Positions 4,237 to 54,703 of a stretch of 64,000 nt of DNA are shown in pieces. Both the position numbers and the translations under genes were made by a program. This DNA is from a virus, in IMG/VR virus record IMGVR_UViG_3300046336_000034, positions 1 to 64,000 of that record, one strand, 5' to 3'. How positions within the stretch are numbered: position 1 is the first letter of the stretch; each line of letters opens with the position of its first letter. Below the pieces are notes generated by a model. The model was not told where the DNA came from and did not search any database. It saw only the letters and a program-made list of their open reading frames with translations.

Positions 4237-4442
4237 AGCCGAAGTTGATGATTATTGTTAGATGTAAGCAGGACATTTGCTAATTCTGCGCTACCGTGAG
4301 TTATACCACCATAAAAAGCATCATCGCAATTACCACCACACCAATCATAAGGGTTGAAGTCCTCTGGCAGTGGCTCGTAATCCTCTGCAACTTCACATAG
4401 ACGTGCAAACAAGGTGTCAGAGATTGTGAGAGTAACTGCCAT
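4233..4442 (-). CDS. hypothetical protein
   Basis: ORF track; packing. Confidence 0.6.
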   Translation of the reverse strand: MAVTLTISDTLFARLCEVAEDYEPLPEDFNPYDWCGGNCDDAFYGGITHGSAELANVLLTSNNNHQLRL

Positions 4443-13341: not shown

Positions 13342-13935
13342 TTAAATACCGTGCCTCTCTGAGTATTTGATACCGTAATTTTGTTCGAGTAACCACAACT
13401 GCTTAGTTCTATAGTCTATTGCCATTTGCTTAGCTTCGTTTTCGCCGTGGGCATGAATTGGAAAGCTTTTCATACATTGCTTATCATTTTCATCGTACCA
13501 ACTAGCCCTCCAATAAGTATCTATCTTACCTGATGGTTTTTTCTTATTGTAACGATGAACACCTGTAATACCAGAGGTGTTTCTGGATTGCTTTTTTCTG
13601 TTCTTGCTATTTTCACCGTCAGAAGAAACTCTAAGATTCATAATCCTGTTATCATCCTTCTTTCCGTTAATATGGTCTATAAGAGGTTGCTCCCCTTCAG
13701 GGTAGTCACCGTGGATATACGTCCAAGCTAAACGGTGTGCTTGGTATAGATGACCACTAAACCCGATTCGCACATAACCATCTTTCCCCATATTACCAGC
13801 AATTTGTCCTGCTTTAACATTTCGTGCAGGGGAGACCAACCAATAAAACAAGCCAGTCTCATACTCGTAACATAGTAATTCTTTCAACAGCGTATAGGGT
13901 AGCAATGCTTCTTTCTTCTTATTAACCTTAGTCAT
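13342..13935 (-). CDS. HNH homing endonuclease with AP2-like C-terminus
   Basis: HRLAW, DHINGKKDDNRIMNLR, NTSGITGV; likely ATG 13935 behind AAGGA. Confidence 0.88.
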   Translation of the reverse strand: MTKVNKKKEALLPYTLLKELLCYEYETGLFYWLVSPARNVKAGQIAGNMGKDGYVRIGFSGHLYQAHRLAWTYIHGDYPEGEQPLIDHINGKKDDNRIMNLRVSSDGENSKNRKKQSRNTSGITGVHRYNKKKPSGKIDTYWRASWYDENDKQCMKSFPIHAHGENEAKQMAIDYRTKQLWLLEQNYGIKYSERHGI

Positions 13936-13968
13936 TTTATTCCTTGTAATCAAAATATGTCGCTTAAA

Positions 13969-14026
13969 AACAACAAGCAGGGTGGTAACAAATCACCTTT
14001 TCGGACTGCATATCCTAGCCTGTGTT
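13969..14026 (-). ncRNA. HEG-leader three-way-junction RNA, copy A
   Basis: ACAGGC-UA-GGA..UCC-GAAA-A-GGUG[AUUUGUUAC]CACC-CU-GCUUGU. Confidence 0.7.
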
Positions 14027-14033
14027 ATCTTTA

Positions 14034-14062
14034 ATTATAACACTAAATGTGCAGGTTGTCAA
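14034..14062 (-). promoter_or_regulatory. consensus sigma70 promoter upstream of leader RNA A
   Basis: TTGACA-17-TATAAT with extended TG. Confidence 0.85.
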
Positions 14063-28264: not shown

Positions 28265-29089
28265 TCAACAACCGTCAATTTCTTTAACTTTGCAGTTATC
28301 AAAATGAAATCTAACCATCGCTGGTTTGAATGTTGATTGTTTGCCGCAATGTGGGCAAACTAGAAGAGGCTGATTTAACCAGTAATCTTTCAGCTTCTGC
28401 TTGCGCTCGTCTGTACAGGACATATCTAAGAGTGATTGAGCTAGTTTTATTTTACTTTTAGTCTCTTCTGTTCTCTGTTTTCCGAAGTTCCAATGCGTCT
28501 CACCTCCCATGCCATATTGAGGGTGGTTTACACCTGTATGCATCTGAGACATTAAACGTTTTGTCTCTTCGGTATGCTTCTTACCTTTAAAAGTACCGTC
28601 CCTGCTCTTGTAGCTTTTAATAAGAGACTCGGATAATTTTCTCAATGTCTCCTGAGTTTTAGGTTTACCTGTGTTAGCTTTTCTTACTGCTTCTTTTTGT
28701 TTTTCTGAAGTGCCAAGACCCGCTCTACCTTCTCCACCATCCGAGAGGTTAGTAAGAATGCCACCGTTATTGTCTATCCTCTTTCCGTAGAGAGAGATTA
28801 ACCTTATCTCCTCCACATACATTTCCTCTGCCGTCTCATACTGTTGGTGTAATCTTATGACAACAATTTCATTATCTTCTTGCATTCTTTTTATTTTACT
28901 TTTGACAAGAAAATTAACTCTATCCTCATTTTCAGAGAAATGCCCGTACACCCTTTTCCAGTTACAGGATGTGCCTATATAGAAAGGCATATCCCCCTGC
29001 ATTAGCATATAAACGTAATAAGCTTTACCAAGTGGTCTAAGAAAAGCTCCCACATCATATCGTGAGTTAAAGTCTAAATTCTGAAACAT
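28265..29089 (-). CDS. GIY-YIG homing endonuclease with NUMOD3-like repeats
   Basis: YYVY...FYIG...R; LTNLSDGGEG; GKKHTEETKRLMS; C-terminal CPHC. Confidence 0.85.
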   Translation of the reverse strand: MFQNLDFNSRYDVGAFLRPLGKAYYVYMLMQGDMPFYIGTSCNWKRVYGHFSENEDRVNFLVKSKIKRMQEDNEIVVIRLHQQYETAEEMYVEEIRLISLYGKRIDNNGGILTNLSDGGEGRAGLGTSEKQKEAVRKANTGKPKTQETLRKLSESLIKSYKSRDGTFKGKKHTEETKRLMSQMHTGVNHPQYGMGGETHWNFGKQRTEETKSKIKLAQSLLDMSCTDERKQKLKDYWLNQPLLVCPHCGKQSTFKPAMVRFHFDNCKVKEIDGC

Positions 29090-29124
29090 ATTTTCTCCAT
29101 TAAAGAAACCATTACTAAATAAAC

Positions 29125-29180
29125 AACAAGGCGGTACAGGTAATGACTCTGTATTTTCGGGAGCAACCCCTAGCCTTGTT
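29125..29180 (-). ncRNA. HEG-leader three-way-junction RNA, copy B
   Basis: AACAAGGC-UA-GGG..CCC-GAAA-A-UACAG[AGUCAUUAC]CUGUA-CC-GCCUUGUU; extended -10 TATAAT at 29191-29196. Confidence 0.75.
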
Positions 29181-29223
29181 TCAACTAAACATTATACCAC
29201 AATTTGTAACAGTTGTAACCACT

Positions 29224-42436: not shown

Positions 42437-45030
42437 ACATAATTCCTGTCTATAACTTGAGCAATTGGAAGAGTTGAATCACTGATACTAAGCAAGTAAT
42501 CGTACACTTGGTACGGGACATATCCAGCCTTGATAACCTTTATATCCACATATGTGCTAGGTGCATACGTGTAAACAAATCCGTAGTTGTCTGCGGCATT
42601 TTGGTCTACATTCGCAAGCGCTGTATTAGTGTCACTTGTTTTAACAACAATGTCTGAACCTGCTACTAATCCTGTCAGGGTGAGTGTGTTTACTGAAAAC
42701 GGATACAAACTTGTCTGTTGTGCTGTACTCGTTGTTGTCATAGGTATAGCTAATCTAGTAAGAATATTACCAGCATTAACTATCAGGGTTGTAGCACGTA
42801 TTTTAAGTTTAAAACCTGTTGTGCTATTGATGACCTGTGAGCTTAAATTAACTGCATTCAACGCTAACCATGCACCATATCCAGAGCCTGTATCAATAGC
42901 AAACTCGATTGTATGGTTTCCCCAAGTGCTACCACTTGTCCATGTGACGTTAGTACCTGTAGCTGTAGTCAACGCATTAGTAAATGCTGTGTAGCCAATA
43001 GCAAAAAATGGCATCTCCCATGTCACTTGGTCACCTGCTTTTGTCAATAAGACAGAGCCGCTTGAGTTAAATTGAGGCAAACCGCCCGTGATGAAACACT
43101 GCGCAGCGGTTGACGATGTGGGTTCATTACCCAGTAGGTCAACAAATCCAGCGGTTGTACTTATAAACCGAGTCCCCCAATGCGTACCATAAACTGATAC
43201 CTGCCCACTGGTTGCTGCTGTCAATCCACAACTTTTATATACAGTATTTAGTGAAGCAATTACAGACGTATCCGCATAGTCACCCATACAGTTCTCAATG
43301 AGTACATTGGTATCAGAGTTTACGAAGCTGTATGGCCCTGTACGAGTGTTACTCAGGTACATGCGCTTGATGGTGATACCATCGTTGTTACCTGCACCGT
43401 TTACACCGATACCTGTGACTGTTGCAGTCATCACTAAGGGAGTAACACTATCTGTACCTATGCTTTTAATCAAAGTCTCATAACAAGCATTAAGTGTAAC
43501 TATACCGTTGTATGGGCCGTTGTTTGGAAGGGGTAGCAAGAATCCACTAACTGTAGTCTTGTTGCACCCTGTTGCGAAATCTAACGCATATTGCGGATTT
43601 GTACTTGTTGTAGTCGTTGTAATTGTGTGGTCATAGTACGTAAGATTATTGATTGCACAATTTTGAGCACCAACAAAGAAACCTCTACCTCCGACAAATA
43701 TTTCGTTTGTAAACGTGCAGTTCACCGCCTGAGTCGAACTGATACTACCAGTTGTGGCATTAGCTCTCAATGTCAATGACAAATGAGTGTTACCTGAAAA
43801 GGTTACGTTTGTTGCATAGTTTATAGTGCTGACATAGCTACCAGATGCGGCTAATGAGAACCTATTGAATGCATTATTTTGAACTAATCCACCAGCAAAG
43901 CATGAACTCACAGCAAGTGCTGCTTGGGCACTTTGCGCTTGGGTGGGTGCAACAATACAGTCCGACACATCTAATGGTGAGGCTATTTCTGACAGAATCA
44001 TTGAATCAGATATAGCACAAGATTTATATTTTACATAAAAAGCTTGTAAAAAGTTAACATACCACTGAATAACACATCCACGTAAATCAAAATAACCTGC
44101 ACCAGTGGTGACGAACTCTTGTCTTGTAGCAATAGTCGCATTAGGTAATACCCGTGTACCTGAGCCTGATGCAGAGCGAGTAACATTTGTTAGGATAATA
44201 GCGGGGATACGAACTTTACAACCTGTGGGTGGTAAAAAGTAAACGCCATTAGTTCCATCATTCCCAATAACAATACCTGCTGTTGTTTGCTTAAACAGTT
44301 TTACGCTTCCATCTGTACGTGTAGTAGATAAAGCGACTTGTGAGCCTGCACTTGAGAATCGATCATAGACACCAGAACCTGCCGATGTCTCAATCCACAC
44401 ACCAGTGAACACACCTGCATTAGTTGCTGTTGTTGGGCATTGAATCACTTGACCACGCACGCCTGTGGTAGTTCCAATTTGAAACCATGCTTCAACCGTC
44501 TCTACAGCCCCAATACGGGGTACTGTAATCGTTGCCGCATCTGCCCCACGTACCTCTATCCACCCTTGTACATCAGCCCCTGTACAAGTAGCTGTAATAC
44601 CAGTCAAAAGACCTGCGGTAAAGTCCCCACCTGCTTTGTTACCAATCTTTATAAAACCTGTTGCCCCAATAGCTGCACCTGCGACAATTGGTTCTGTCTG
44701 CCATGTTGTCCAAGCGCCTAGAAAGACACCAGTAACACCTCCTTGGGAGATGGCAGCACCGTAAGCAGGGGAGTTACCTGCCCCACCTGTATAGGCAATA
44801 ACTCTTACATAGGTTGGGTCAATCCTCAGAGTACCACCTGTTCCCGTGAACGAGACTGTATCTAATGACCCACCAGCTACGCTATGGTTAGAGCAGGCGT
44901 ATGTGTCAGTACGTATTACCAGTGTTGTATCATTGCTTATAACATGTGTATCAAGGGTTGCGTTAACAGACGGGGAAGTTAGTGCGTCAAAGTTAACGAT
45001 TGCACCTGTGTTATGTGTATAAGCCGTCAT
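42433..45030 (-). CDS. large beta-helix-containing virion protein
   Basis: 865 aa; NVTFSGN / NCTFTN repeats; C-terminal TLTLTGLVAGSDI Ig-like domain. Confidence 0.65.
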   Translation of the reverse strand: MTAYTHNTGAIVNFDALTSPSVNATLDTHVISNDTTLVIRTDTYACSNHSVAGGSLDTVSFTGTGGTLRIDPTYVRVIAYTGGAGNSPAYGAAISQGGVTGVFLGAWTTWQTEPIVAGAAIGATGFIKIGNKAGGDFTAGLLTGITATCTGADVQGWIEVRGADAATITVPRIGAVETVEAWFQIGTTTGVRGQVIQCPTTATNAGVFTGVWIETSAGSGVYDRFSSAGSQVALSTTRTDGSVKLFKQTTAGIVIGNDGTNGVYFLPPTGCKVRIPAIILTNVTRSASGSGTRVLPNATIATRQEFVTTGAGYFDLRGCVIQWYVNFLQAFYVKYKSCAISDSMILSEIASPLDVSDCIVAPTQAQSAQAALAVSSCFAGGLVQNNAFNRFSLAASGSYVSTINYATNVTFSGNTHLSLTLRANATTGSISSTQAVNCTFTNEIFVGGRGFFVGAQNCAINNLTYYDHTITTTTTSTNPQYALDFATGCNKTTVSGFLLPLPNNGPYNGIVTLNACYETLIKSIGTDSVTPLVMTATVTGIGVNGAGNNDGITIKRMYLSNTRTGPYSFVNSDTNVLIENCMGDYADTSVIASLNTVYKSCGLTAATSGQVSVYGTHWGTRFISTTAGFVDLLGNEPTSSTAAQCFITGGLPQFNSSGSVLLTKAGDQVTWEMPFFAIGYTAFTNALTTATGTNVTWTSGSTWGNHTIEFAIDTGSGYGAWLALNAVNLSSQVINSTTGFKLKIRATTLIVNAGNILTRLAIPMTTTSTAQQTSLYPFSVNTLTLTGLVAGSDIVVKTSDTNTALANVDQNAADNYGFVYTYAPSTYVDIKVIKAGYVPYQVYDYLLSISDSTLPIAQVIDRNYV

Positions 45031-45031
45031 T

Positions 45032-45682
45032 TTATAATATCTCTGTCAAAACTGAGGTTAAAATCCCCGTTGTGTAATTAAGCGTCTTACGCACTGTTTG
45101 GTCTACTTGGAAATGGTCAACATACTGAAGAACACCACCTGCCCAATACAAGAGTTTATATGTACCGTCTGCGTAGTCCACTCTTTGCAAATCTTCACCT
45201 GAATAAGTCAGTTCATCTAGACCCTCAGTCTCTGTACTCACTGTTCCAGTACCTGTGGCGGTTTGAACCACGACAACGGAATGTTCAACGGCTGTGATAG
45301 GTGCAACATTGGAAACGATAGTTTTACCATCTGCAAGTTTAAGAATTAAACGCCCTTTATCGTCGAATTGAGCGCCTACAACATCGTTCCCTTGGGGTAG
45401 GTTAGCCTTGGCTATTTGAGGCTCTTGTAGAGCTTCCTGATAAGCCTGTGGGTTATTTCTGATGTCCAGGATTGCTTGAAGGTGTCTTGGAACAGCAGGT
45501 TTAACAAATTTCTTAATTGTTTTCTGCTCTGCCTGCTTTACAAGGGCTAAGCCTTTGAAGATTGCCTCATCAGTTGACCTACCGTTTGCTAGGGCTTCAT
45601 TGGCTGCGTCTGCAAAGAGTAATCTTATTTCTCTACTCTTCCCTTGTAGTGTGGGGTGTGTTGATAGGGCTGTGTATTGCAT
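45032..45682 (-). CDS. ChaB-like N-terminal domain protein
   Basis: P.L....IRLLFADAANEAL..G...AI..G..VK; start MQYTAL overlaps the HNH 3' end. Confidence 0.5.
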   Translation of the reverse strand: MQYTALSTHPTLQGKSREIRLLFADAANEALANGRSTDEAIFKGLALVKQAEQKTIKKFVKPAVPRHLQAILDIRNNPQAYQEALQEPQIAKANLPQGNDVVGAQFDDKGRLILKLADGKTIVSNVAPITAVEHSVVVVQTATGTGTVSTETEGLDELTYSGEDLQRVDYADGTYKLLYWAGGVLQYVDHFQVDQTVRKTLNYTTGILTSVLTEIL

Positions 45683-46253
45683 CTTGTTTTCCGTGTCTCT
45701 CTGAGTACCTAGCACCTGCTGCATTGAGTTCTTGTTGTTTTAGTAATTTAAAATTCATTGCTAAGTCAAAAGCTCCGTCTACACCGTATTTCGAAATTGA
45801 AAAACTCCTGCCACACTGTTTTCCAGAGGGGAGTTTCCAATTTACTTCCCATGACTCATAGACACGCCCTTTTATAATCTTTTTACGCAAGCACATCCCT
45901 GTGAAACCAGAAGTGTTTGTTGACCGCTTCTTCTGGTTTCTTGAGTTAACCGCATGAGACACTTCTCTCAGATTGAGAAAACGATTGTCAGAGCGATTAC
46001 CATTCTTGTGGTCAATTTCCTCCGTAGGGAAAACACCAAACGCGTATAACCAAGCTAAACGGTGAGCTTTATACGGAATGTTATCTATCTTAATTACTGT
46101 GTAACCATGTTGGATAGTGCCAGCGGGTTGTCCCACTTTGACACTGTTTGCGTGAGGATAAGGTTTCTTAATCCAGACAAACACCCCAGTCTCTTTGCTA
46201 TAATCTAGCACCTCTTTTAACCGTTCTCTGGTTAATTCTCTATTAAATTTCAT
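45633..46253 (-). CDS. HNH homing endonuclease with AP2-like C-terminus
   Basis: HRLAWLY, DHKNGNRSDNRFLNLR, NTSGFTG, YSERHG. Confidence 0.9.
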   Translation of the reverse strand: MKFNRELTRERLKEVLDYSKETGVFVWIKKPYPHANSVKVGQPAGTIQHGYTVIKIDNIPYKAHRLAWLYAFGVFPTEEIDHKNGNRSDNRFLNLREVSHAVNSRNQKKRSTNTSGFTGMCLRKKIIKGRVYESWEVNWKLPSGKQCGRSFSISKYGVDGAFDLAMNFKLLKQQELNAAGARYSERHGKQDAIHSPINTPHTTREE

Positions 46254-46287
46254 TCTGATTCCTTCGTAAAAGGCGTAATAATAAAAG

Positions 46288-46337
46288 CAAAAGGAAGTAG
46301 TTTACGAAGCTACTTGTCGGCTGCCGCCTATCCTTTG
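46288..46337 (-). ncRNA. HEG-leader three-way-junction RNA, copy D
   Basis: AAAGGA-UA-GGC..GCC-GACA-AGUAG[CUUCGUAAA]CUACU-UCCUUU; promoter TTGAAA-17-TATAAT at 46355-46383. Confidence 0.78.
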
Positions 46338-46386
46338 TTATAACTTAATAATATATTATATCACAAATACTCTAGTATTTCAAATA

Positions 46387-47856
46387 CTATGCCGCATTAT
46401 CTGTATTTACACTGGAAGTATCTGTTCCAGATAATGTATTAGCTGTTCCCTCTCCTGCTGTTTTCATTCCATCTCCTGAACGGGAAGTCTTTTCTGGGAG
46501 AATTACATCTAAATCTGTACCTTCTGGTAGGGAGTCTAAACCTAATTTACCTAGGATGTCATTAATAACGTCAAGACTTCTAGGTAAGAATCCAACAGCA
46601 CCTACTCGTTGTACAAATTTGGAATATGATTCCATGTCTGTATCTTCAAAGCCCTCATAATCAAAGGTACACTGGCGAGATATATCCCATCCGTTTAATT
46701 CATACAGATGCTTAATAAGGTCGTTATTAAACACCTGCACAATACTTTTCAAGTACGCTTCTACTTGAGTGCCTGTCAGTGAGTTCTTAATTGATGCTAA
46801 AGCAAAACTACCTGTCGATGTGTTACCTAAAAGTAAGAGGTCAGCAGCTAGTCCAATGAATATCATCTCTCGGTAGTAAGATTTTATTTTCGTTGTATCA
46901 AAGGACTTCTGACCTACCGTGGACATAAGTTCCAAGTCAAACAGCTTCTGCTTAGTATCTGGGTCTACATCACTAGGAAGCATCACACCTGCTTGAGAGT
47001 TCTGCTGAAGATTCCTGAGGATGTTCTGGAAGTTCAAGAGTGCTGCTTTTTGTTCAGGGGATGCCTCAGAGGACATGTACTGAGCAGGTAAGGTTAATAA
47101 AGGTACACCCTGTAAATCCTTAGCTACTCCAGATGCCTCAAGTTCTTCAATCGCTTGTAAATACTTCCAAGGAAGGTATACGTTCCTCAAAGGAGAAGTA
47201 CCGTAAGGGTTGGTTTTATTCTGTCCTACAGTGAACAGTAAGAACTTCTCACGAGGGAGAACAACAACACCTGTTGGGTGCTTTGTATAACGTCCAAAAG
47301 GGTCGTTAACGTATGCTAGGTTTTGCTTCATACCTATTACATCGTTACCCTCGTCATCAAACACAAAATTAGTGATACTTTGTTGATGACGTAACGCTAA
47401 CTTTTTAATCCCAACCAAACCATCGTTGTACATAGAACCTTCTTCTTTGGTTCTACGGCGAAGGACCTTCTCTAGTGGTGCAAAACCATAATCTAAGGAA
47501 GTTAAACTGGAAGCAATGACATCCTCTAGCGGGATTTCCATATCACCGAGCATTTGCTCGATAATTAGTGCTTGCTTCTTCTCTTTAGCTGTGGGGTTTT
47601 TACAAGGGAGAACTCTAAAAGTTGCTTTAGTCAACATGGACTTATAAAGACCTATTGCTGCATTACATGCTGGATGTAGAAGCATTTGTTTGTAGGTCTT
47701 TAAGTTCGTTGGAAAGTTCAGTTCAGATTTGATTTCCTCAGCAGGAATACCACCAAACATTCTCATACCTGATACACCCATTTCACCTAGAGTAAAGGCT
47801 TCTGGTTTATCTAATCCACTGTACGATTTTTCTACTTTTGATTTTCTTGTTGTCAT
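46387..47856 (-). CDS. portal protein
   Basis: 489 aa after terminase; YGFAPLEKV, NPYGTSPLR, GSFALA motifs. Confidence 0.9.
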   Translation of the reverse strand: MTTRKSKVEKSYSGLDKPEAFTLGEMGVSGMRMFGGIPAEEIKSELNFPTNLKTYKQMLLHPACNAAIGLYKSMLTKATFRVLPCKNPTAKEKKQALIIEQMLGDMEIPLEDVIASSLTSLDYGFAPLEKVLRRRTKEEGSMYNDGLVGIKKLALRHQQSITNFVFDDEGNDVIGMKQNLAYVNDPFGRYTKHPTGVVVLPREKFLLFTVGQNKTNPYGTSPLRNVYLPWKYLQAIEELEASGVAKDLQGVPLLTLPAQYMSSEASPEQKAALLNFQNILRNLQQNSQAGVMLPSDVDPDTKQKLFDLELMSTVGQKSFDTTKIKSYYREMIFIGLAADLLLLGNTSTGSFALASIKNSLTGTQVEAYLKSIVQVFNNDLIKHLYELNGWDISRQCTFDYEGFEDTDMESYSKFVQRVGAVGFLPRSLDVINDILGKLGLDSLPEGTDLDVILPEKTSRSGDGMKTAGEGTANTLSGTDTSSVNTDNAA

Positions 47857-47885
47857 ATATTGGATTAGCTCCTTGGAGATTTACT

Positions 47886-49585
47886 TTAAGTGAACTCGCC
47901 TTGTTGAAGGGGTGCTGCACCTGTGGGGAGTTGGGTTGTTTGGAAGCCGAAAGAGGTTGCTTGGGTTAGGTCTGGGAGGGAGAAGGATGGTAAAGGTGCT
48001 TGCTTATTTAGTAAAACAAAACAATCTGAACTTGCATCTGCTTGGTCGTCCTTATAATTATTAGTACCGTCGAAGGTTTCGAGTTCCCTGTGGTAATCCG
48101 CATTCCACTCACCTTTGACAATGCTAACAAAACCACCTTCTGCTACAGCAGCAAACGGAGCAAACCGCTGTACCTTAGCTCTTGTAGGCTTAACTAATCT
48201 ACAAATAAAACCAGCTTCTAATAGACGCTTTTGTAATCCCTTGACATAAGCTCCACCACCTGCGGGGTCAAGAGGTAATCCGACAACTACGTCTGTGCCA
48301 TCTGCTCTTGCTGTATTGAGAATAAGTTCTTCAACAACATGTGCTCGGTCACGAATCCTAACGACATCTTCAACTGTATAAAGTGACTTAACATCTTTAG
48401 ACATCAAAACACCTGCTGTATAATCAGGATTTTTCGAGGAGCTTTCATTTGGTTTTGTGAAACTCAAATCCCAAGCCCTGACACGTTTAAGCACCTTTGC
48501 GGGAGGGTATAGAACTTCTATTACCCAGTGTTGTTTCCAGTAACCTGATGCACTCTCACGAGCGTACCAAGAACCGTAAAGTAGGCGTTCTTTTTCTACT
48601 AGGGGGAGGGCTTTTAGTTTAGAAATATAGCTTGGGTCAGCCTTCATCAACACAGGATTTGAGTAGATATTCCCCGGAATAAATTTGAAACTAAGTATCC
48701 CCGACTCACCACCTGTGCCATAGATTTTCTCAAGTTCTTCTCTTGAATCTGCCCATTCCATACCGCCACCAGATACCTGCACAAAATACCTGTTAGGATA
48801 CTCATCCCGTATTATTGGAATACCTCGTTCGTCAAGTGCGTACTCAACCCACTCACGCATAAAGGAATCGTAATCGGGATTACCTGTCGCAAAGATTTGT
48901 TTCTTAAAATCTACGGAGGTTGACCTGAGCCTAGAGAAAAGATAAACCACATTCTCCCTAGAGAGCTGTTGAATTTCATCGAAGCCGAGAAAATTAAGTT
49001 CTGCCCCCTGCCAGTTATATTTATCTGATGGGTTATCTAAGTAAGCAAACTTCAATGTTGCACCTGAACTGAAGATAATTTCTAAGTCTCGATTTCTTAC
49101 TTTTAAAGCTGGGTCAACCTTCTTATATAATTGAATTGCAGCATCAAATAAGCCACCACTGTTACTAAGTTGCTTTGTTGTTTTACGAAATATCACACCA
49201 CGAGTACGAGGATGGTGACAGAACTTCAGGAATGAGCCAAGCAAGCAAAATGATTTACCTGCTCCCGCTGCCATATTTGTTATGTGATTCGTTAATTCAC
49301 TCCCATATTTCTACGGGTATCGGACTATATCTTTAATCTTTCGATTACCTACTGTTTCGACTGCACTTGCAGCCTACAAGCTTTCGCTTTAGTCTCTACA
49401 CACGCCCAGAGATTACTCTCTTGCTTGGCTCGGTATTGCCCTCGGCTTTACGTTAGGGTTTCACCGAATTAAATAGGTTTTGCTCGGAGGCGCAATTCAC
49501 CACCGTAGTAAGTTATATCAGCATCACTCAAAAGGTACTGCTCTTGAGCTTTGGACGCTGGTGCAAACACTAATTCTTCATTCAT
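47886..49585 (-). CDS. terL: terminase large subunit, spliced: exon 1 49585-49499, exon 2 49271-47886 (490 aa)
   Basis: Splicing restores Walker A YYGG|AAGAGKS; Walker B LGFDE, ATGNP, RAWDL and DDQAD nuclease motifs. Confidence 0.93.
49272..49498 (-). mobile_element. group I intron (IA2-like), 227 nt, no ORF
   Basis: 5' splice after U paired to G in P1; terminal G; P4 UCGGUG/UACCGA, P7 GACUA/UAGUC, AAGAUAUAGUCC, P7.1/P7.2, P8, P9. Confidence 0.92.
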
Positions 49586-50699
49586 CCGTTTCCTTTATTC
49601 TTATGTAGACATCTCGCATTTTATTTAATAAAACTGATTCAAGCTCCACAGGATAACATTCGGTGTAACCTGTTCTACGCATGTACTGTTTCATTTTTTC
49701 AACGGGAAGTTTATACTCTATGAAATCTGAGTGTATGTCCAGTTCAAGTTTTGTCGCAACTCTTCCATTAACAACAGGAAACGAGTAAAGCAGGTCTGAA
49801 GAACTTCCACCTAGTAAGCCATATTCTCTAATGCGGTTTTTTGGGTTTTTACCATAGCCGAGTTTTAAGAAAGTAAAATCAAATACCTTGATTTTAAATA
49901 GGTAGATATTACTTGCATTATTCAAATATGAATCGTTGCATTCGTGACAAATAAAATTATTACGAGTCACGCAAACTTTGTCTATATCCCTGATGTGCCC
50001 ACAGTCTACAAATCTATAACTTTTAAATCTCGATGGAAGCTCAAGGCTTGAGGCATCTCCTAGTAACTCTAATCCACGTTGCCTTACTAGCGCAAGATAT
50101 GCAACTTCTTCGCAGTCACTGCACTTAGGTACACCATGTTTAAGTCGGTGCTCTAACATATAGAAAGTATGCCCGCACTCTAAATGTCTGTACCTATTAT
50201 AACTGTTGGGGCGATTAAGATGCCTAGCTGCCTCTGGTGCTTTCTCTACTAACTCTATACCATATTTTGACGTTGCCAGTGTGAGCTTTGATTGCGTACA
50301 CTCATCACACACATAAGGAATGAGCGGAGGTTTTTGTAAATTACTGTAGAAAATATCTACCTCATGCCCACACTCTAGTACTTTGTACTTTCGTTTCAGA
50401 ACACACCCATCAGAGGAAGCCCCAAGACATAACAGACCTCTTAAAGACTCTGCTTCCTCTGCACGAGAGTCTGAGCACATCTTGCAAGTAAGTACTCCTT
50501 TACTATTACAAATATTACTGATTTGTCTAACCGTGGAATGACCACAGGTATTAAAAATATAGTTTCCGTACCACCTAGGTTTCTTTAAAAACATACTTAA
50601 TAAAGTAAGTCCACGTTTAGATGCGTATCCTTGATTTAATTTAAATCGTTGAACTTCCTTATTAGTGTTGTCATTGATTAAGTCTGTAAACATTCCCAT
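49578..50699 (-). CDS. free-standing endonuclease: CGH/CxxC zinc repeats plus C-terminal GIY-YIG (T5orf172-like) domain
   Basis: Four CGH...CxxC repeats; NIYLFKI..LKLGY..NP..RI...E..IH...GYTECY. Confidence 0.72.
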   Translation of the reverse strand: MGMFTDLINDNTNKEVQRFKLNQGYASKRGLTLLSMFLKKPRWYGNYIFNTCGHSTVRQISNICNSKGVLTCKMCSDSRAEEAESLRGLLCLGASSDGCVLKRKYKVLECGHEVDIFYSNLQKPPLIPYVCDECTQSKLTLATSKYGIELVEKAPEAARHLNRPNSYNRYRHLECGHTFYMLEHRLKHGVPKCSDCEEVAYLALVRQRGLELLGDASSLELPSRFKSYRFVDCGHIRDIDKVCVTRNNFICHECNDSYLNNASNIYLFKIKVFDFTFLKLGYGKNPKNRIREYGLLGGSSSDLLYSFPVVNGRVATKLELDIHSDFIEYKLPVEKMKQYMRRTGYTECYPVELESVLLNKMRDVYIRIKETDE

Positions 50700-50729
50700 A
50701 TTATCTCCTCAGATAATCCTCTAAAATAA

Positions 50730-50784
50730 AACAAACAGCGGGAGAATGAGGAGTTCTCTTTCGGGAATGACCCTAGCTGTTGTT
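50730..50784 (-). ncRNA. HEG-leader three-way-junction RNA, copy E
   Basis: AACAGC-UA-GGG[UCAUU]CCC-GAAA-GAGAA[CUCCUCA]UUCUC-CC-GCUGUU. Confidence 0.8.
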
Positions 50785-50795
50785 AAAACTATTAC

Positions 50796-51185
50796 TTACT
50801 CTTCGACCTTGTCAATTTCTTTACCACCAGAAATCATTGTCAACGAAAATACAGGTGCTTTAGTAGTAGGTTGAATTTCCTGACCTTCTTGTTCATCGTA
50901 CTCAGTTGAATAAACATCTTTAATCAACTCCCGATAAATCTGAAGTACCAGAGCTGCACTCTTCAACTTATTCTGGTCTGAAGAATCTTCGCTTTCTATA
51001 ATTTCCATCACAGTTTTAACACTTGATGAAAGATGAGGCTTCAACTTACGGATTAAGCTAATAAATTCTCTATTTCTGACCTCTCGGTTTGTTAGAGGCT
51101 CGGCTTTACGTCCGTCAATCCTGCCTGACATGTTAATATTAGGGTCGGTATCACCACCCAGTAACTCGCGTCTCTTAAAAACCAT
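50796..51185 (-). CDS. putative terminase small subunit
   Basis: Upstream of terL; DPNIN.SGR start; helical body. Confidence 0.5.
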   Translation of the reverse strand: MVFKRRELLGGDTDPNINMSGRIDGRKAEPLTNREVRNREFISLIRKLKPHLSSSVKTVMEIIESEDSSDQNKLKSAALVLQIYRELIKDVYSTEYDEQEGQEIQPTTKAPVFSLTMISGGKEIDKVEE

Positions 51186-51367
51186 ACTATACTATCCTTT
51201 TACACCTGAAAGTATACAATAATATACCACAAACAGCAAAAGCCTCCCTATAGGAAGCTAGTTAAAATTAATGACAATCTTTATTTAAACAGGCGTTGTC
51301 TTCCTGTTGACGCTTCGTACTTTTCAATACTCTCCGTGGTCAAAACGTGCCCTAAGGTAGTGGGACT

Positions 51368-51443
51368 TGGTGCTCCGTGGAGGATTTGAACCCACGACCT
51401 CACCCTTACAAGGGGCGCGCTCTTCCAACTGAGCTAACAGAGC
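51368..51443 (-). tRNA. tRNA-Thr(UGU)
   Basis: 76-nt cloverleaf; CGCCC-CT-TGT-AA-GGGTG; GTTCAAATC; encoded CCA. Confidence 0.93.
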
Positions 51444-51452
51444 TAATTCTTT

Positions 51453-52043
51453 TTAGACTTTACAATCGGTTGTACCATTCAGTACGCCGTAGATATGCGG
51501 TAACCAACCCTTGCGAACTTCACCGTTGGTGAACTTACCATCAACTACTTGCCCCTTGATGCCTACCTTAGCACCGCCAACATCTACAGCCATGCCAAGT
51601 GAACCATCGAGATTCATACCACCTTCAACAGGGTAATCAGTAAGAAATAAATTTAATTTAGATTGTTCTTTAACAATCTGACCATTCGCATCAAACACGA
51701 ACTTAAAACCGTTTCCCAGTAAAGTCATTTCACCTCCTTGATTTCGCACATCAGTAGGATAGTCTCCTGTAATCGTAATACCCTTAGATGCCGCCTCAAT
51801 CACTAGGGCTTTAACCCTATCTTCCATAGGTGAAGCATCTACAGAGCCTGTAATCTGGCAAGAGAACTTAGTCACTGCTGCAGGAGCAGTCTCAACAACT
51901 CCACTGGTGCAAGCTGTAGTAGCTAATATTAAGACAAGGGTAAAAATAATAAAGGAAACCTTCAACCAATGGTGATTCCAAAAATTCATATCTGGCTTAA
52001 TCCATTTATTAACCCCGTTAAGCGAGTAGTTTATTTTCAACAT
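51453..52043 (-). CDS. putative lipoprotein
   Basis: Hydrophobic stretch followed by TTAC lipobox-like site; start uncertain. Confidence 0.55.
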   Translation of the reverse strand: MLKINYSLNGVNKWIKPDMNFWNHHWLKVSFIIFTLVLILATTACTSGVVETAPAAVTKFSCQITGSVDASPMEDRVKALVIEAASKGITITGDYPTDVRNQGGEMTLLGNGFKFVFDANGQIVKEQSKLNLFLTDYPVEGGMNLDGSLGMAVDVGGAKVGIKGQVVDGKFTNGEVRKGWLPHIYGVLNGTTDCKV

Positions 52044-52593
52044 TCTTGTCCTTTTCTATTATAACTGGGTAAAATACGCCACTATACTCTAGCGCCTTAC
52101 TTTCATATACACTGCTTGCTTCCTGTGGTGTTGCAAAGCTTCCAAGATGGATTTTTTCACCTGTCAAGCTACGTATTTGAGCAACATATCTGCACGATTT
52201 TATATCCCAACTTACACCCTTAAGACCACTTGTATTGCTTCTAGGCTTACTTGTATTTCTTTTGTTTTCTCGGTGCGAGCAGACCCTGAGATTACTAATA
52301 CAATTATTAATAGGATTCCTATCAATATGGTCAATTAGGTTTTGTTCTCCGAAAGGAAATTTCCCATGAACATATAACCAAGCTAATCGGTGTTCCAAGT
52401 AGGCTTGACCATCAATCTTAATTACCCTATAGCCATTAGGTCTTAAATAACCTGCCCTGTTACCTACTACAATCTTGCTATAAATGGAACTTTTCTCAAT
52501 CCAAGTAAAGACTCCAGTATTGGAATCATATTTTAATAATTCTTTTAACCTGTCTAAAGTTAACTTTACTTCTTTTCTCTCGTTGGTTTTCAT
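52018..52593 (-). CDS. HNH-AP2 homing endonuclease
   Basis: HRLAWLY, DHIDRNPINNCISNLR, NTSGLKGV. Confidence 0.9.
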   Translation of the reverse strand: MKTNERKEVKLTLDRLKELLKYDSNTGVFTWIEKSSIYSKIVVGNRAGYLRPNGYRVIKIDGQAYLEHRLAWLYVHGKFPFGEQNLIDHIDRNPINNCISNLRVCSHRENKRNTSKPRSNTSGLKGVSWDIKSCRYVAQIRSLTGEKIHLGSFATPQEASSVYESKALEYSGVFYPVIIEKDKNVENKLLA

Positions 52594-52629
52594 TTTGTTT
52601 CCTTAGTTAATAGGATAGTTACTAATAAA

Positions 52630-52683
52630 ACAATCAGCAGGAAGGTAACTAATCTTCTTTTCGAGAATGACTCTAGCTGTTGT
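52630..52683 (-). ncRNA. HEG-leader three-way-junction RNA, copy F
   Basis: CAGC-UA-GAG[UCAUU]CUC-GAAA-A-GAAG[AUUAGUUAC]CUUC-CU-GCUG. Confidence 0.78.
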
Positions 52684-53404
52684 AAATAAAAGAACTCCCA
52701 AGCAGTTAAACGTATCTAACCGATGGGAGCCGTGTTGTAGTTAACCCCTCTATTTGAGCTTGATATAGAGGCTTGAGGGGTGTTATGAAAGAAAGATAAA
52801 GCAAGCCTTACCTCATCCTTTTCTACCGTGGGTAGATAGGAAAATTATTAGTGCTACCTTTACGTAGCTCGGTCAAACCTTCCAAAGCGGATTGGCTTCT
52901 GGTAAGACAGGTTACAACATCAACTGAGTGCGCTTCCAGCAGGTACTCCCACCGGTCTCAGTATCTTTGTTGTTCTTGAAGATAACCCTCACACATGGAA
53001 AGTCATTGTGTAAAGCGGAACTCATCTCCGTTGTTATCTAATTTAATTGGTGCTTACTCGCGCACAGTAAGATAAAAGGGCATACAAGACTTTATCATCG
53101 TTACTCGCAATATCCCCTGAAATTTTACGCATAATCATTTCACCAAACGGTTACTGACTCAGAGGTATAGGTGACGCTTTCACCCTACTCCCGAAAGCGA
53201 TTCGTTGAATCAGTATGCGTTTGGTAAATAAATTGGTGTCAGTAATGAACTCTGACTTGCACTCTATCGACTAAATGTTTCTTGTGGGTGCATCCGACAT
53301 AAATTACGAGTCATCACCTCGTCTCACCAAAACCAAGTACACCCTCTGAGCAGTATCCCGTTTCATTTAGGTCTTACTTTATCAGCACTCGATGTACTTG
53401 GTTT

Positions 53405-53480
53405 TGGCTCCTTTACCTCGACTTGAACGAGGGACATTTGCATTAACAGTGCAACGCTCTACCGACTGAGCTATAAAGGA
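53405..53480 (-). tRNA. tRNA-Asn(GUU)
   Basis: 76-nt cloverleaf; TTGCA-CT-GTT-AA-TGCAA; GTTCAAGTC; encoded CCA. Confidence 0.93.
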
Positions 53481-54178: not shown

Positions 54179-54703
54179 TTACACGTCTTTCCTTTGAAAA
54201 TCTTTGTGGTGCTTTGCTTCTGCTGCTTTACGAGCAACGATTGCATCTTCCAAACAACTGAAGTAACCAAGGTGCTCACGAGTACTAGTGGTGATGTAGG
54301 CTTTCCATTTTTGGGACTTCTTGCTCCAAGATATACCTTTAGTCCCTGAAGTATTGTTTTTAGGCTTAACTCTGTTTTGACTATTCTCTTTATATGTTGC
54401 CTCTCGTAAATTCACTAATCTGTTATCAGCTCTATTACCGTTTACATGGTCAATAGTTTTAACAGGAAACTTTCCATTTGAGATTAACCAGATTATTCGG
54501 TGGGTTAAATATTTCATTCCTTTATAGGTAATATAGCAGTACCCCGTTCTTTCGTCTAAATATCCAGCAGGAGAATCTTTTTTGATTCTTCTACCTACAT
54601 CTACTGTCCAGTAAAGTTCTCCTGAATTAGGGATATATTTTAAGACCATAGTAGCCTCTTCAAAGGACAACTGTTTTTCTTTCTTTTTGCTTATTTCTGT
54701 CAT
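54179..54703 (-). CDS. HNH-AP2 homing endonuclease
   Basis: HRIIW, DHVNGNRADNRLVNLR, NTSGTKGI. Confidence 0.9.
   Translation of the reverse strand: MTEISKKKEKQLSFEEATMVLKYIPNSGELYWTVDVGRRIKKDSPAGYLDERTGYCYITYKGMKYLTHRIIWLISNGKFPVKTIDHVNGNRADNRLVNLREATYKENSQNRVKPKNNTSGTKGISWSKKSQKWKAYITTSTREHLGYFSCLEDAIVARKAAEAKHHKDFQRKDV

Follow-up and report, generated by a model that had tools for sequence, protein, structure and literature searches.

The c4 RNA of phages P1 and P7 and the CI RNA of P4 are cut out by RNase P and act in trans, and their targets flank the RNA gene, with one set upstream and one downstream. In the pseudoknot riboswitches preQ1-II and SAM-II, which sequester the Shine–Dalgarno (SD) sequence, translation initiation is controlled by pairing of a hairpin loop with a strand further downstream, at or close to the SD. 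A further RNA, int-alpA, is reportedly among the candidate motifs of Weinberg et al. 2017. The main text of that paper (PMC5737381) does not discuss int-alpA, and none of the publications mentioning the motif that our literature search returned assigns it a function. RNA structure at the ribosome-binding site (RBS) has also been described for homing endonuclease genes (HEGs) of T-even phages: I-TevI, I-TevII, I-TevIII, segB and Aeh1 mobE carry the SD in an RBS-sequestering hairpin, and little enzyme is made (PMC2988022). These hairpins are single, very stable and local, and are bypassed by a late promoter inside the hairpin (PMC2988022).

Here we analysed HEG leaders in the first 64 kb (hereafter, the window) of an 87,008-bp IMG/VR virus record derived from freshwater metagenomes. 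The minus strand carries most genes of this phage window, and the portal protein shares 51% identity with its counterpart in Curvibacter phage P26059A; a megablast search of positions 45000-53000 against a phage collection returned no match. An earlier note had described an RNA element in the HEG leaders, its loop complementary to two tandem sites ahead of the start codon. We identify this leader RNA, by its match to a covariance model, as the catalogued Rfam family int-alpA, which the earlier note had not recognised. The family is thus already known, without an assigned function, and what appears to be new is its two-site logic, a description of which was not found in the literature search; a separate search on HEG leader pseudoknots returned nothing relevant. 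The recurrence of the two-site layout across the int-alpA family suggests that the motif works as a translation switch.

HEG leaders carry elements matching the int-alpA family

The Rfam int-alpA model (RF02996) matched all five leader elements, here termed A, B, D, E and F, end to end (model positions 1-71; Table 1). Element B, with an E-value of 3e-08, exceeds the family gathering score of 35.8 bits, and the remaining four fall below it. Local searches gave E-values of 1.7e-4 to 0.015 for D, E and F (0.0013 for D), and a whole-window covariance scan with Rfam fast filters did not pick up element B. On these scores we treat A, D, E and F as divergent, AT-rich relatives of int-alpA and not as curated members.

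The int-alpA fold is a three-way junction composed of an outer stem P1, a small hairpin P2 and a hairpin P3. In element D, P1 is formed by approximately 46331-46337 with 46288-46295, P2 by 46326-46328 with 46319-46321 and P3 by 46310-46313 with 46297-46300, and a U-rich run follows P1. All three stems are kept by differing base pairs across the five copies, as the P3 stems illustrate (GGUG/CACC, ACAG/CUGU, GUAG/CUAC, GAGAA/UUCUC and GAAG/CUUC). The junction sequences CUAG, CGAAAA and CCUG are present in A, B, E and F; element D has an AUAG/CGACAA variant that also occurs in other viral contigs, and elsewhere the D-type core variant GAUAGGC...GCCGACAA is accompanied by the same two-site layout. 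Minimum-free-energy folding of four whole leaders, which excludes pseudoknots, was not better than shuffles (z of -0.5 to +0.75); because such folding is blind to pseudoknots, we use these scores neither for nor against the structure. The topology (stem, CUAG, stem, GAAA, stem, CU) is hammerhead-like, and a hammerhead was ruled out by the absence of the catalytic-core nucleotides; an Rfam search of the leader regions returned no ribozyme family at E up to 10.

The RF02996 model ends in a 3′ tail (model positions ~66-71, consensus AgGG) that is complementary to the P3 loop consensus CCuU. This 3′ end aligns with the proximal of the two sites, S1, in B, D, E and F and not in A; the distal site, S2, falls past the 3′ end of the model. 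The five elements therefore share with int-alpA the junction, the junction nucleotides and a 3′ tail matching the P3 loop, with B scoring over the cut-off, and canonical members from other viral contigs have the same two sites. They differ from canonical int-alpA in being AT-rich and sub-threshold (A, D, E and F), in the AUAG/GACAA junctions of D and in their context, which is that of HEGs lying among structural genes rather than of integrase and alpA. The integrase/alpA association that names the family was not found here: the genes that follow the leaders encode homing endonucleases.

Elements A, B and D are each immediately preceded by a promoter-like site, so that the fold would sit at the mRNA 5′ end. 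In cassette D, the end of the -10 hexamer lies 16 nt ahead of the first P1 base, and the minus strand reads promoter-like site, three-way-junction RNA, U-rich run, two sites, SD and AUG; the leaders of HEGs E, F and B are arranged as in D. A UUUU(A/U)UU run directly follows P1 in all five elements. Across the family, -10-like hexamers peak 8-15 nt before the core in about a third of members, only ~37% have at least five U in the 8 nt after P1, and the presence of an upstream promoter showed no family-wide correlation with the U-run. A simple terminator scan at the five elements found nothing, a null that is not evidence against termination because the scan cannot model a branched stem.

Table 1. 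Leader elements, loops, sites, promoters and nuclease genes of the five int-alpA cassettes, with a sixth nuclease gene (duplex energies are predicted)
Feature	Coordinates	Strand	Description
Promoter, element A	14034-14062	-	Perfect TTGACA-17-TATAAT
int-alpA element A	13958-14025	-	26.2 bits
A loop AUUUGUUAC	13985-13993	-	P3 loop; no convincing S1 or S2
HEG behind element A	13342-13935	-	HNH_3/AP2
Promoter-like site, cassette B	29191-29219	-	GTTACA-17-TATAAT with TG
int-alpA element B	29109-29180	-	45.2 bits
B loop AGUCAUUAC	29140-29148	-	P3 loop
B S1 GUAAUGGUU	29107-29115	-	6 Watson-Crick pairs (GUAAUG), 9 including two G-U; -5.3 kcal/mol
B S2 UAAUGG	29097-29102	-	Overlaps SD GGAG; -3.3 kcal/mol
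HEG B	28265-29089	-	NUMOD3 motifs, 274 aa; phrog_314, homing endonuclease
Promoter-like site, cassette D	46355-46383	-	TTGAAA-17-TATAAT, TG before -10 (extended -10); 11/12 matches
int-alpA element D	46273-46338	-	25.9 bits; 3′ end of Rfam match covers S1
Leader of HEG D	46254-46337	-	
D loop CUUCGUAAA	46301-46309	-	P3 loop, address loop
D S1 UUACG	46274-46278	-	Complementary to loop CGUAA; -3.5 kcal/mol
D S2 UUUACGAAG	46262-46270	-	Complement of full 9-nt loop; -10.0 kcal/mol
HEG D	45633-46253	-	HNH_3 (E 5e-15) and AP2-like, 206 aa
int-alpA element E	50718-50783	-	33.2 bits
E loop CUCCUCA	50747-50753	-	P3 loop
E S1 GAGGA	50717-50721	-	-7.9 kcal/mol
E S2 UGAGGAG	50705-50711	-	SD itself; -11.0 kcal/mol
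HEG E	49578-50699	-	Free-standing, 373 aa, T5orf172/GIY-YIG-like C-terminus; weak Pfam matches; phrog_681, endonuclease
int-alpA element F	52616-52683	-	25.6 bits
F loop AUUAGUUAC	52645-52653	-	P3 loop
F S1 GUAACUA	52616-52622	-	Followed by anti-SD UCCU; -6.4 kcal/mol
F S2 UAACUAA	52603-52609	-	Abuts SD AGGA; -5.1 kcal/mol
HEG F	52018-52593	-	HNH_3 and AP2-like, 191 aa
Sixth HNH_3 endonuclease gene	54179-54703	-	Without int-alpA leader

Four of the five leaders hold two sites for the P3 loop

We mapped by script all Watson-Crick and G-U matches of each P3 loop to its own leader. The mapping returned all eight sites that the earlier note had listed for leaders B, D, E and F, with identical positions and sequences on the minus strand (Table 1). 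The broader statement that each HEG leader has two sites holds for these four and fails for A, in which only 4-nt Watson-Crick matches are found. Given that leader A lacks convincing sites and that the HNH gene at 54179-54703 lacks a leader (its upstream ORF leaves no space for a separate one), 'each' was too strong, and the two-site layout applies to four of the five int-alpA leaders in the window.

As had been proposed, the distal site lies at the SD: S2 abuts or overlaps it in B, D, E and F. In D, S2 overlaps the SD AAGGA (46260-46264) and lies inside a small leader hairpin at 46261-46273 (predicted -2.8 kcal/mol). The S2 of E is held in the loop of the hairpin UUAUCU/AGAUAA (predicted -3.8 kcal/mol) and that of F in the loop of a UCCU:AGGA hairpin (predicted -3.1 kcal/mol). 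The proposal that the two pairings exclude one another is likewise borne out, as S1 and S2 are complementary to the same loop nucleotides and both pairings would use the same bases. HEGs D and F are paralogous, their proteins being 49% identical; their loops differ, and in each the sites match the loop of the same leader.

For each loop, a long best match together with a second match of at least 5 nt was found on its own leader only, the sole exception being the A loop on the F leader. Of the 174,000 windows across the genome, a fraction of 1e-4 to 2e-3 held both sites, and for D, E and F the 17-29 such windows are, by count, about the number expected from the true locus alone. When the distal site was held fixed and the upstream part shuffled, the proximal site gave P of ~0.005 for E, 0.006 for F and 0.11 for D, so the 5-nt S1 of D is weak by itself. 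Non-cognate and genome-wide controls were used in place of dinucleotide shuffles, which keep too much of the sequence of 16-20-nt leaders. Elsewhere in the 87-kb genome, loop complements occur at the expected count, with no excess.

Two further loop matches were noted. A single base separates the A loop from the F loop. The A loop has only weak sites on its own leader; on the leader of HEG F it matches AACAAA, which lies between the SD and the AUG, as well as GUAAC within S1. Its matches on the F leader (52574-52629) extend over 6 and 5 nt, compared with 4 nt on its own, and leader A could be either a decayed leader or a participant in cross-regulation. Outside the window, an 85-aa ORF (65009-65060, minus strand) lies behind a TGTTATAAT promoter and has at its RBS GUAACUAAGGG, an 8-nt complement of the F loop. 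No int-alpA element lies upstream of this ORF, and the match may be due to chance, with ~12 such 8-mers expected in the genome.

Loop and sites covary across the int-alpA family

Three IMG/VR pattern scans for the conserved core yielded about 250 loci. Since at least 9 of 20 sampled loci exceed the Rfam cut-off, this homologue set includes canonical int-alpA members, and among the canonical members over the cut-off L013, L022, L026, L042 and L058 have both sites. For a family-wide test we used 78 viral int-alpA elements with distinct loops and search windows fixed by position, not by complementarity. In the proximal window (nt 13-28 after P3), 86% of elements contained a complement of at least 5 nt to their own loop, compared with 6.8% for non-cognate loops; in the distal window (-20 to -4 relative to the start codon), the values were 68% and 9.9%. 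None of 5,000 permutations reached the observed mean for either window.

The geometry is also constrained. S1 starts 16-20 nt after P3 and 5-9 nt after P1, a median of 8 nt (range about 5-14 nt) separates S1 from S2, and the median distance from the end of S2 to the start codon is 7 nt. Of 56 elements, 49 start the S1 helix with the final nucleotide of the loop, the register of an H-type pseudoknot in which the helix could stack on P3. In 40 of the 56, the S2 pairing is displaced by 1-3 nt towards the loop's 5′ side. Close relatives that share their P1 and P3 stems have changed the loop together with both sites: L112 combines the loop auucguuac with GUAACG and AACGAA, and L129, with the P1 and P3 stems of L112, combines the loop cuuuaucac with GUGAUAA and UGAUAAAG. 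Loops are highly diverse and the core is conserved. The earlier note had raised the prospect that proximal sites might lack conservation in homologues; the position of S1 is instead kept and its sequence covaries with the loop. In a test for RNA-level selection on the 56-element set, G:U and A:C combinations at helix ends numbered 22 and 31, respectively. Judged by covariation, both pairings are under selection.

Downstream genes in 58 viral relatives encode DUF1376 (13), HNH_3 (5), DUF927 (4), NUMOD4 (3), HNH (2) and integrase (1) domains, and this variety indicates that the int-alpA leader is not limited to nucleases. The contig of one relative with an int-alpA leader (L023) also holds three CRISPR-DR4 repeats (4245-4392, minus strand).

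A predicted small hairpin encloses the distal site

In predicted folds of 44 of 49 elements, S2 is enclosed by a small hairpin whose two arms are the spacer downstream of S1 and the sequence that follows S2, and S2 itself is 83% unpaired. The hairpin stem holds either the SD or the stretch between the SD and the AUG. In B, D, F and many relatives, the order is S1, anti-SD, S2 and SD, which places the SD in the stem; the S2 of E and of some relatives is itself the SD and lies in the hairpin loop. Local leader hairpins in the window are weak, at a predicted -0.7 to -3.8 kcal/mol. Averaged over the family, the predicted loop:S1 and loop:S2 duplexes are nearly equal in stability (-7.65 and -6.96 kcal/mol). 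The distal duplexes of D and E are predicted to be much stronger than the proximal ones, and a state in which the loop is 'parked' on S1 may there be short-lived.

Comparison with described regulatory RNAs

The earlier note had likened the two sites to those of P1 c4, a comparison that is fair as an analogy of logic and does not extend to family membership: no C4 match was found at E up to 10 in the leader regions of B, D, E and F, and the P4 CI RNA, used as a positive control for the C4 model, scored 74.9 bits. The likeness lies in a basal stem bearing two hairpins (a fold shape visible in the C4 match on P4), in a loop complementary to two target copies on one transcript, one of them at the RBS, and in address sequences that are variable and element-specific. 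On P4, the c4-a1b1 target motif (RF03163) lies on the transcript 5′ of the C4 (RF01695) match; both int-alpA sites, in contrast, are downstream, with S1 at a fixed short distance.

The purpose shared with the T-even HEGs would be to hold the SD of a nuclease gene in RNA structure, and the device is different. The local hairpin here is weak (predicted -0.7 to -3.8 kcal/mol), the promoter-like site of A, B and D is upstream of the whole fold, and the loop, which has a choice of two partners, belongs to a conserved junction RNA separate from that hairpin. With preQ1-II and SAM-II the leaders share a predicted pseudoknot in which a loop pairs with a strand at or near the SD. Unlike in those riboswitches, no ligand is suggested, the downstream genes are functionally unrelated, and the pairing sequences, which are conserved in the riboswitches, vary freely.

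A model for int-alpA leaders and its alternatives

With moderate confidence, we propose from the sequence evidence that the int-alpA leader acts in cis to throttle translation through two states, the loop being parked on S1 in one and locking the RBS by pairing with S2 in the other. The variable 7-9-nt P3 loop would be an address that pairs with either cis site and never with both together. Because S1 is transcribed first, the loop would presumably park there first, leaving only a weak local hairpin over the RBS and permitting leaky translation; by kissing or strand invasion, the loop could then move to S2, which would lock the RBS and turn translation off. Such a leader would limit the yield of a potentially harmful endonuclease per transcript. 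That the action is in cis, which state is on and what triggers the change are inferred. Several observations sit poorly with this throttle: leader A has no convincing sites and precedes a similar HEG, the S1 of D is just 5 nt long with a P of ~0.11 taken alone, and the U-rich run after P1 in all five elements, together with the Rfam type 'Gene; sRNA', gives the element the look of a terminated small RNA. That last feature is the starting point of a possible, on balance unlikely, alternative modelled on P1 c4 and P4 CI, in which a stable RNA of ~65 nt would act in trans as an antisense, kissing S2, and also S1, on read-through mRNAs. Transcription from the cassette promoter would mostly stop at P1 and the U-run, or the RNA would be processed after them; in full-length mRNA the cis loop would be parked on S1, so that repression would track the concentration of free small RNA, a form of dose feedback, and distinct loops would stop the cassettes from interfering with one another. 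The UUUU(A/U)UU run and the Rfam typing speak for this alternative; the promoter-like sites of A, B and D, with a -10-like peak in about a third of the family, are placed as in a small-RNA gene; a hairpin loop presents S2 in the geometry usual for targets of kissing antisense RNAs; loops are diverse on a conserved core; and the A loop fits the F leader better than its own. A trans target needs neither the tightly fixed distance of S1 from P1 nor its pseudoknot register, however, and the U-run is found in only ~37% of the family and is unrelated to promoter presence. Loop complements are also not in excess elsewhere in the genome, P1 is branched and rich in AU, and the simple terminator scan was empty.

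The sign of the throttle could also be reversed, with S2 pairing opening the anti-SD hairpin and activating translation, an arrangement that we consider improbable. By default the loop would rest on S1 with the anti-SD:SD hairpin closed and translation off, and a host factor, ligand or temperature acting on the conserved junction would send the loop to S2, open the stem and turn translation on. The order S1, anti-SD, S2, SD in B, D, F and many relatives, with S2 mostly just 5′ of the SD core, is what such a switch would use; with hairpin loops of just 3-8 nt, a fully paired S2 should put strain on the closing stem; and the junction nucleotides CUAG, CGAAAA and CCUG are strongly conserved, a feature of RNAs that bind ligands or proteins. 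By contrast, the S2 of E, like that of relatives including L006 and L024, is the SD itself, which loop pairing must block. Moreover, the ribosome footprint covers -8 to -16, where the 5-9-bp helix would lie, and the downstream genes are too varied for one ligand. A last reading takes the motifs as DNA: an inverted copy in the loop and direct copies at S1 and S2 would be operators for a DNA-binding protein, for instance in autorepression by the endonuclease. I-TevI, for one, recognises an operator similar to its homing site, and its autorepression through an operator at its own promoter is established (PMC2988022); the cassette-specific motifs are those expected if each nuclease recognised its own sequence. 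We nonetheless regard this reading as very improbable, as the three-copy layout also precedes non-nuclease genes (DUF1376, DUF927 and integrase), the motifs are just 5-9 nt long and G-U pairs extend the match in B. Furthermore, the inverted copy is always in the P3 loop, and 49 of 56 elements have an S1 pairing that starts with the final loop nucleotide, a regularity of RNA folding rather than of DNA binding.

The covariation of the loop with two sites in a fixed, family-wide geometry yields a mechanism that can be tested by mutation, in which the loop chooses between decoy and RBS. Reading the motif as a translation switch also explains its position before toxic or dose-sensitive phage genes such as those for homing endonucleases and replication initiators. 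With an address loop and sites that are free to vary while the scaffold stays constant, int-alpA leaders could serve as a naturally orthogonal set of translational regulators. A doubtful and more far-reaching idea is that int-alpA is a widespread, programmable, bistable phage RNA whose conserved junction carries an address loop free to evolve, and that combines a cis toggle between decoy and RBS with a terminated or processed short RNA repressing matching cassettes in trans. If this were true, the module would provide portable, cassette-specific dose control for mobile nuclease and replication-gene cassettes, resembling immunity, and would be a miniature counterpart of c4/CI spread over many phage lineages.

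Genomic surroundings of the cassettes

At the nuclease loci of this phage, promoter, leader and gene appear to form a cassette. Depth is low across the bodies of HEGs D, E and F in contigs from related freshwater populations; in one contig, a joint removes or replaces 51918-52682 and starts exactly at the 5′ end of element F, and in another, the end of the portal gene is joined to a 39-nt promoter-like stretch and an F-like element. These are single contigs at 85% likeness, and they give a weak hint that HEG cassettes are variable and that promoter, leader and nuclease gene move as one unit.

Other features lie near the F cassette. A match to the abiF RNA motif (RF03085) at 52744-52780 on the minus strand (40.7 bits against a cut-off of 37) is located ~60 nt upstream of element F, and ~105-112 nt spanning it (52737-52847) are missing from related-strain contigs. 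Two tRNA genes (51371-51443 and 53408-53480, minus strand) flank the HEG F cassette, and related-strain contigs break at the tRNA near 51388-51436.

HEG E lies directly upstream of the large terminase gene and overlaps its start. The terminase gene is apparently split by an ORF-less group I intron (Rfam RF00028, 65.5 bits, 49301-49546, minus strand): on the minus strand, exon 1 starts near 49584, reads ...YYGG and ends near 49504, and exon 2 resumes with AAGAGKS near 49271, so that the intron sits in the Walker A motif and the split gene spans 49272-49584 with 47886-49274. HEG E was considered as an intron-encoded gene and ruled out as such, the intron being ORF-less and located inside the terminase gene downstream of HEG E. 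The pair resembles layouts with joint homing of an intron and a free-standing nuclease.

The two ends of the record (1-958 and 85445-87008) are 88-93% identical over ~335 and 500 nt, with an indel between the matching stretches, and reflect either a terminal repeat that has diverged or a wrap-around in the assembly of a mixed population.
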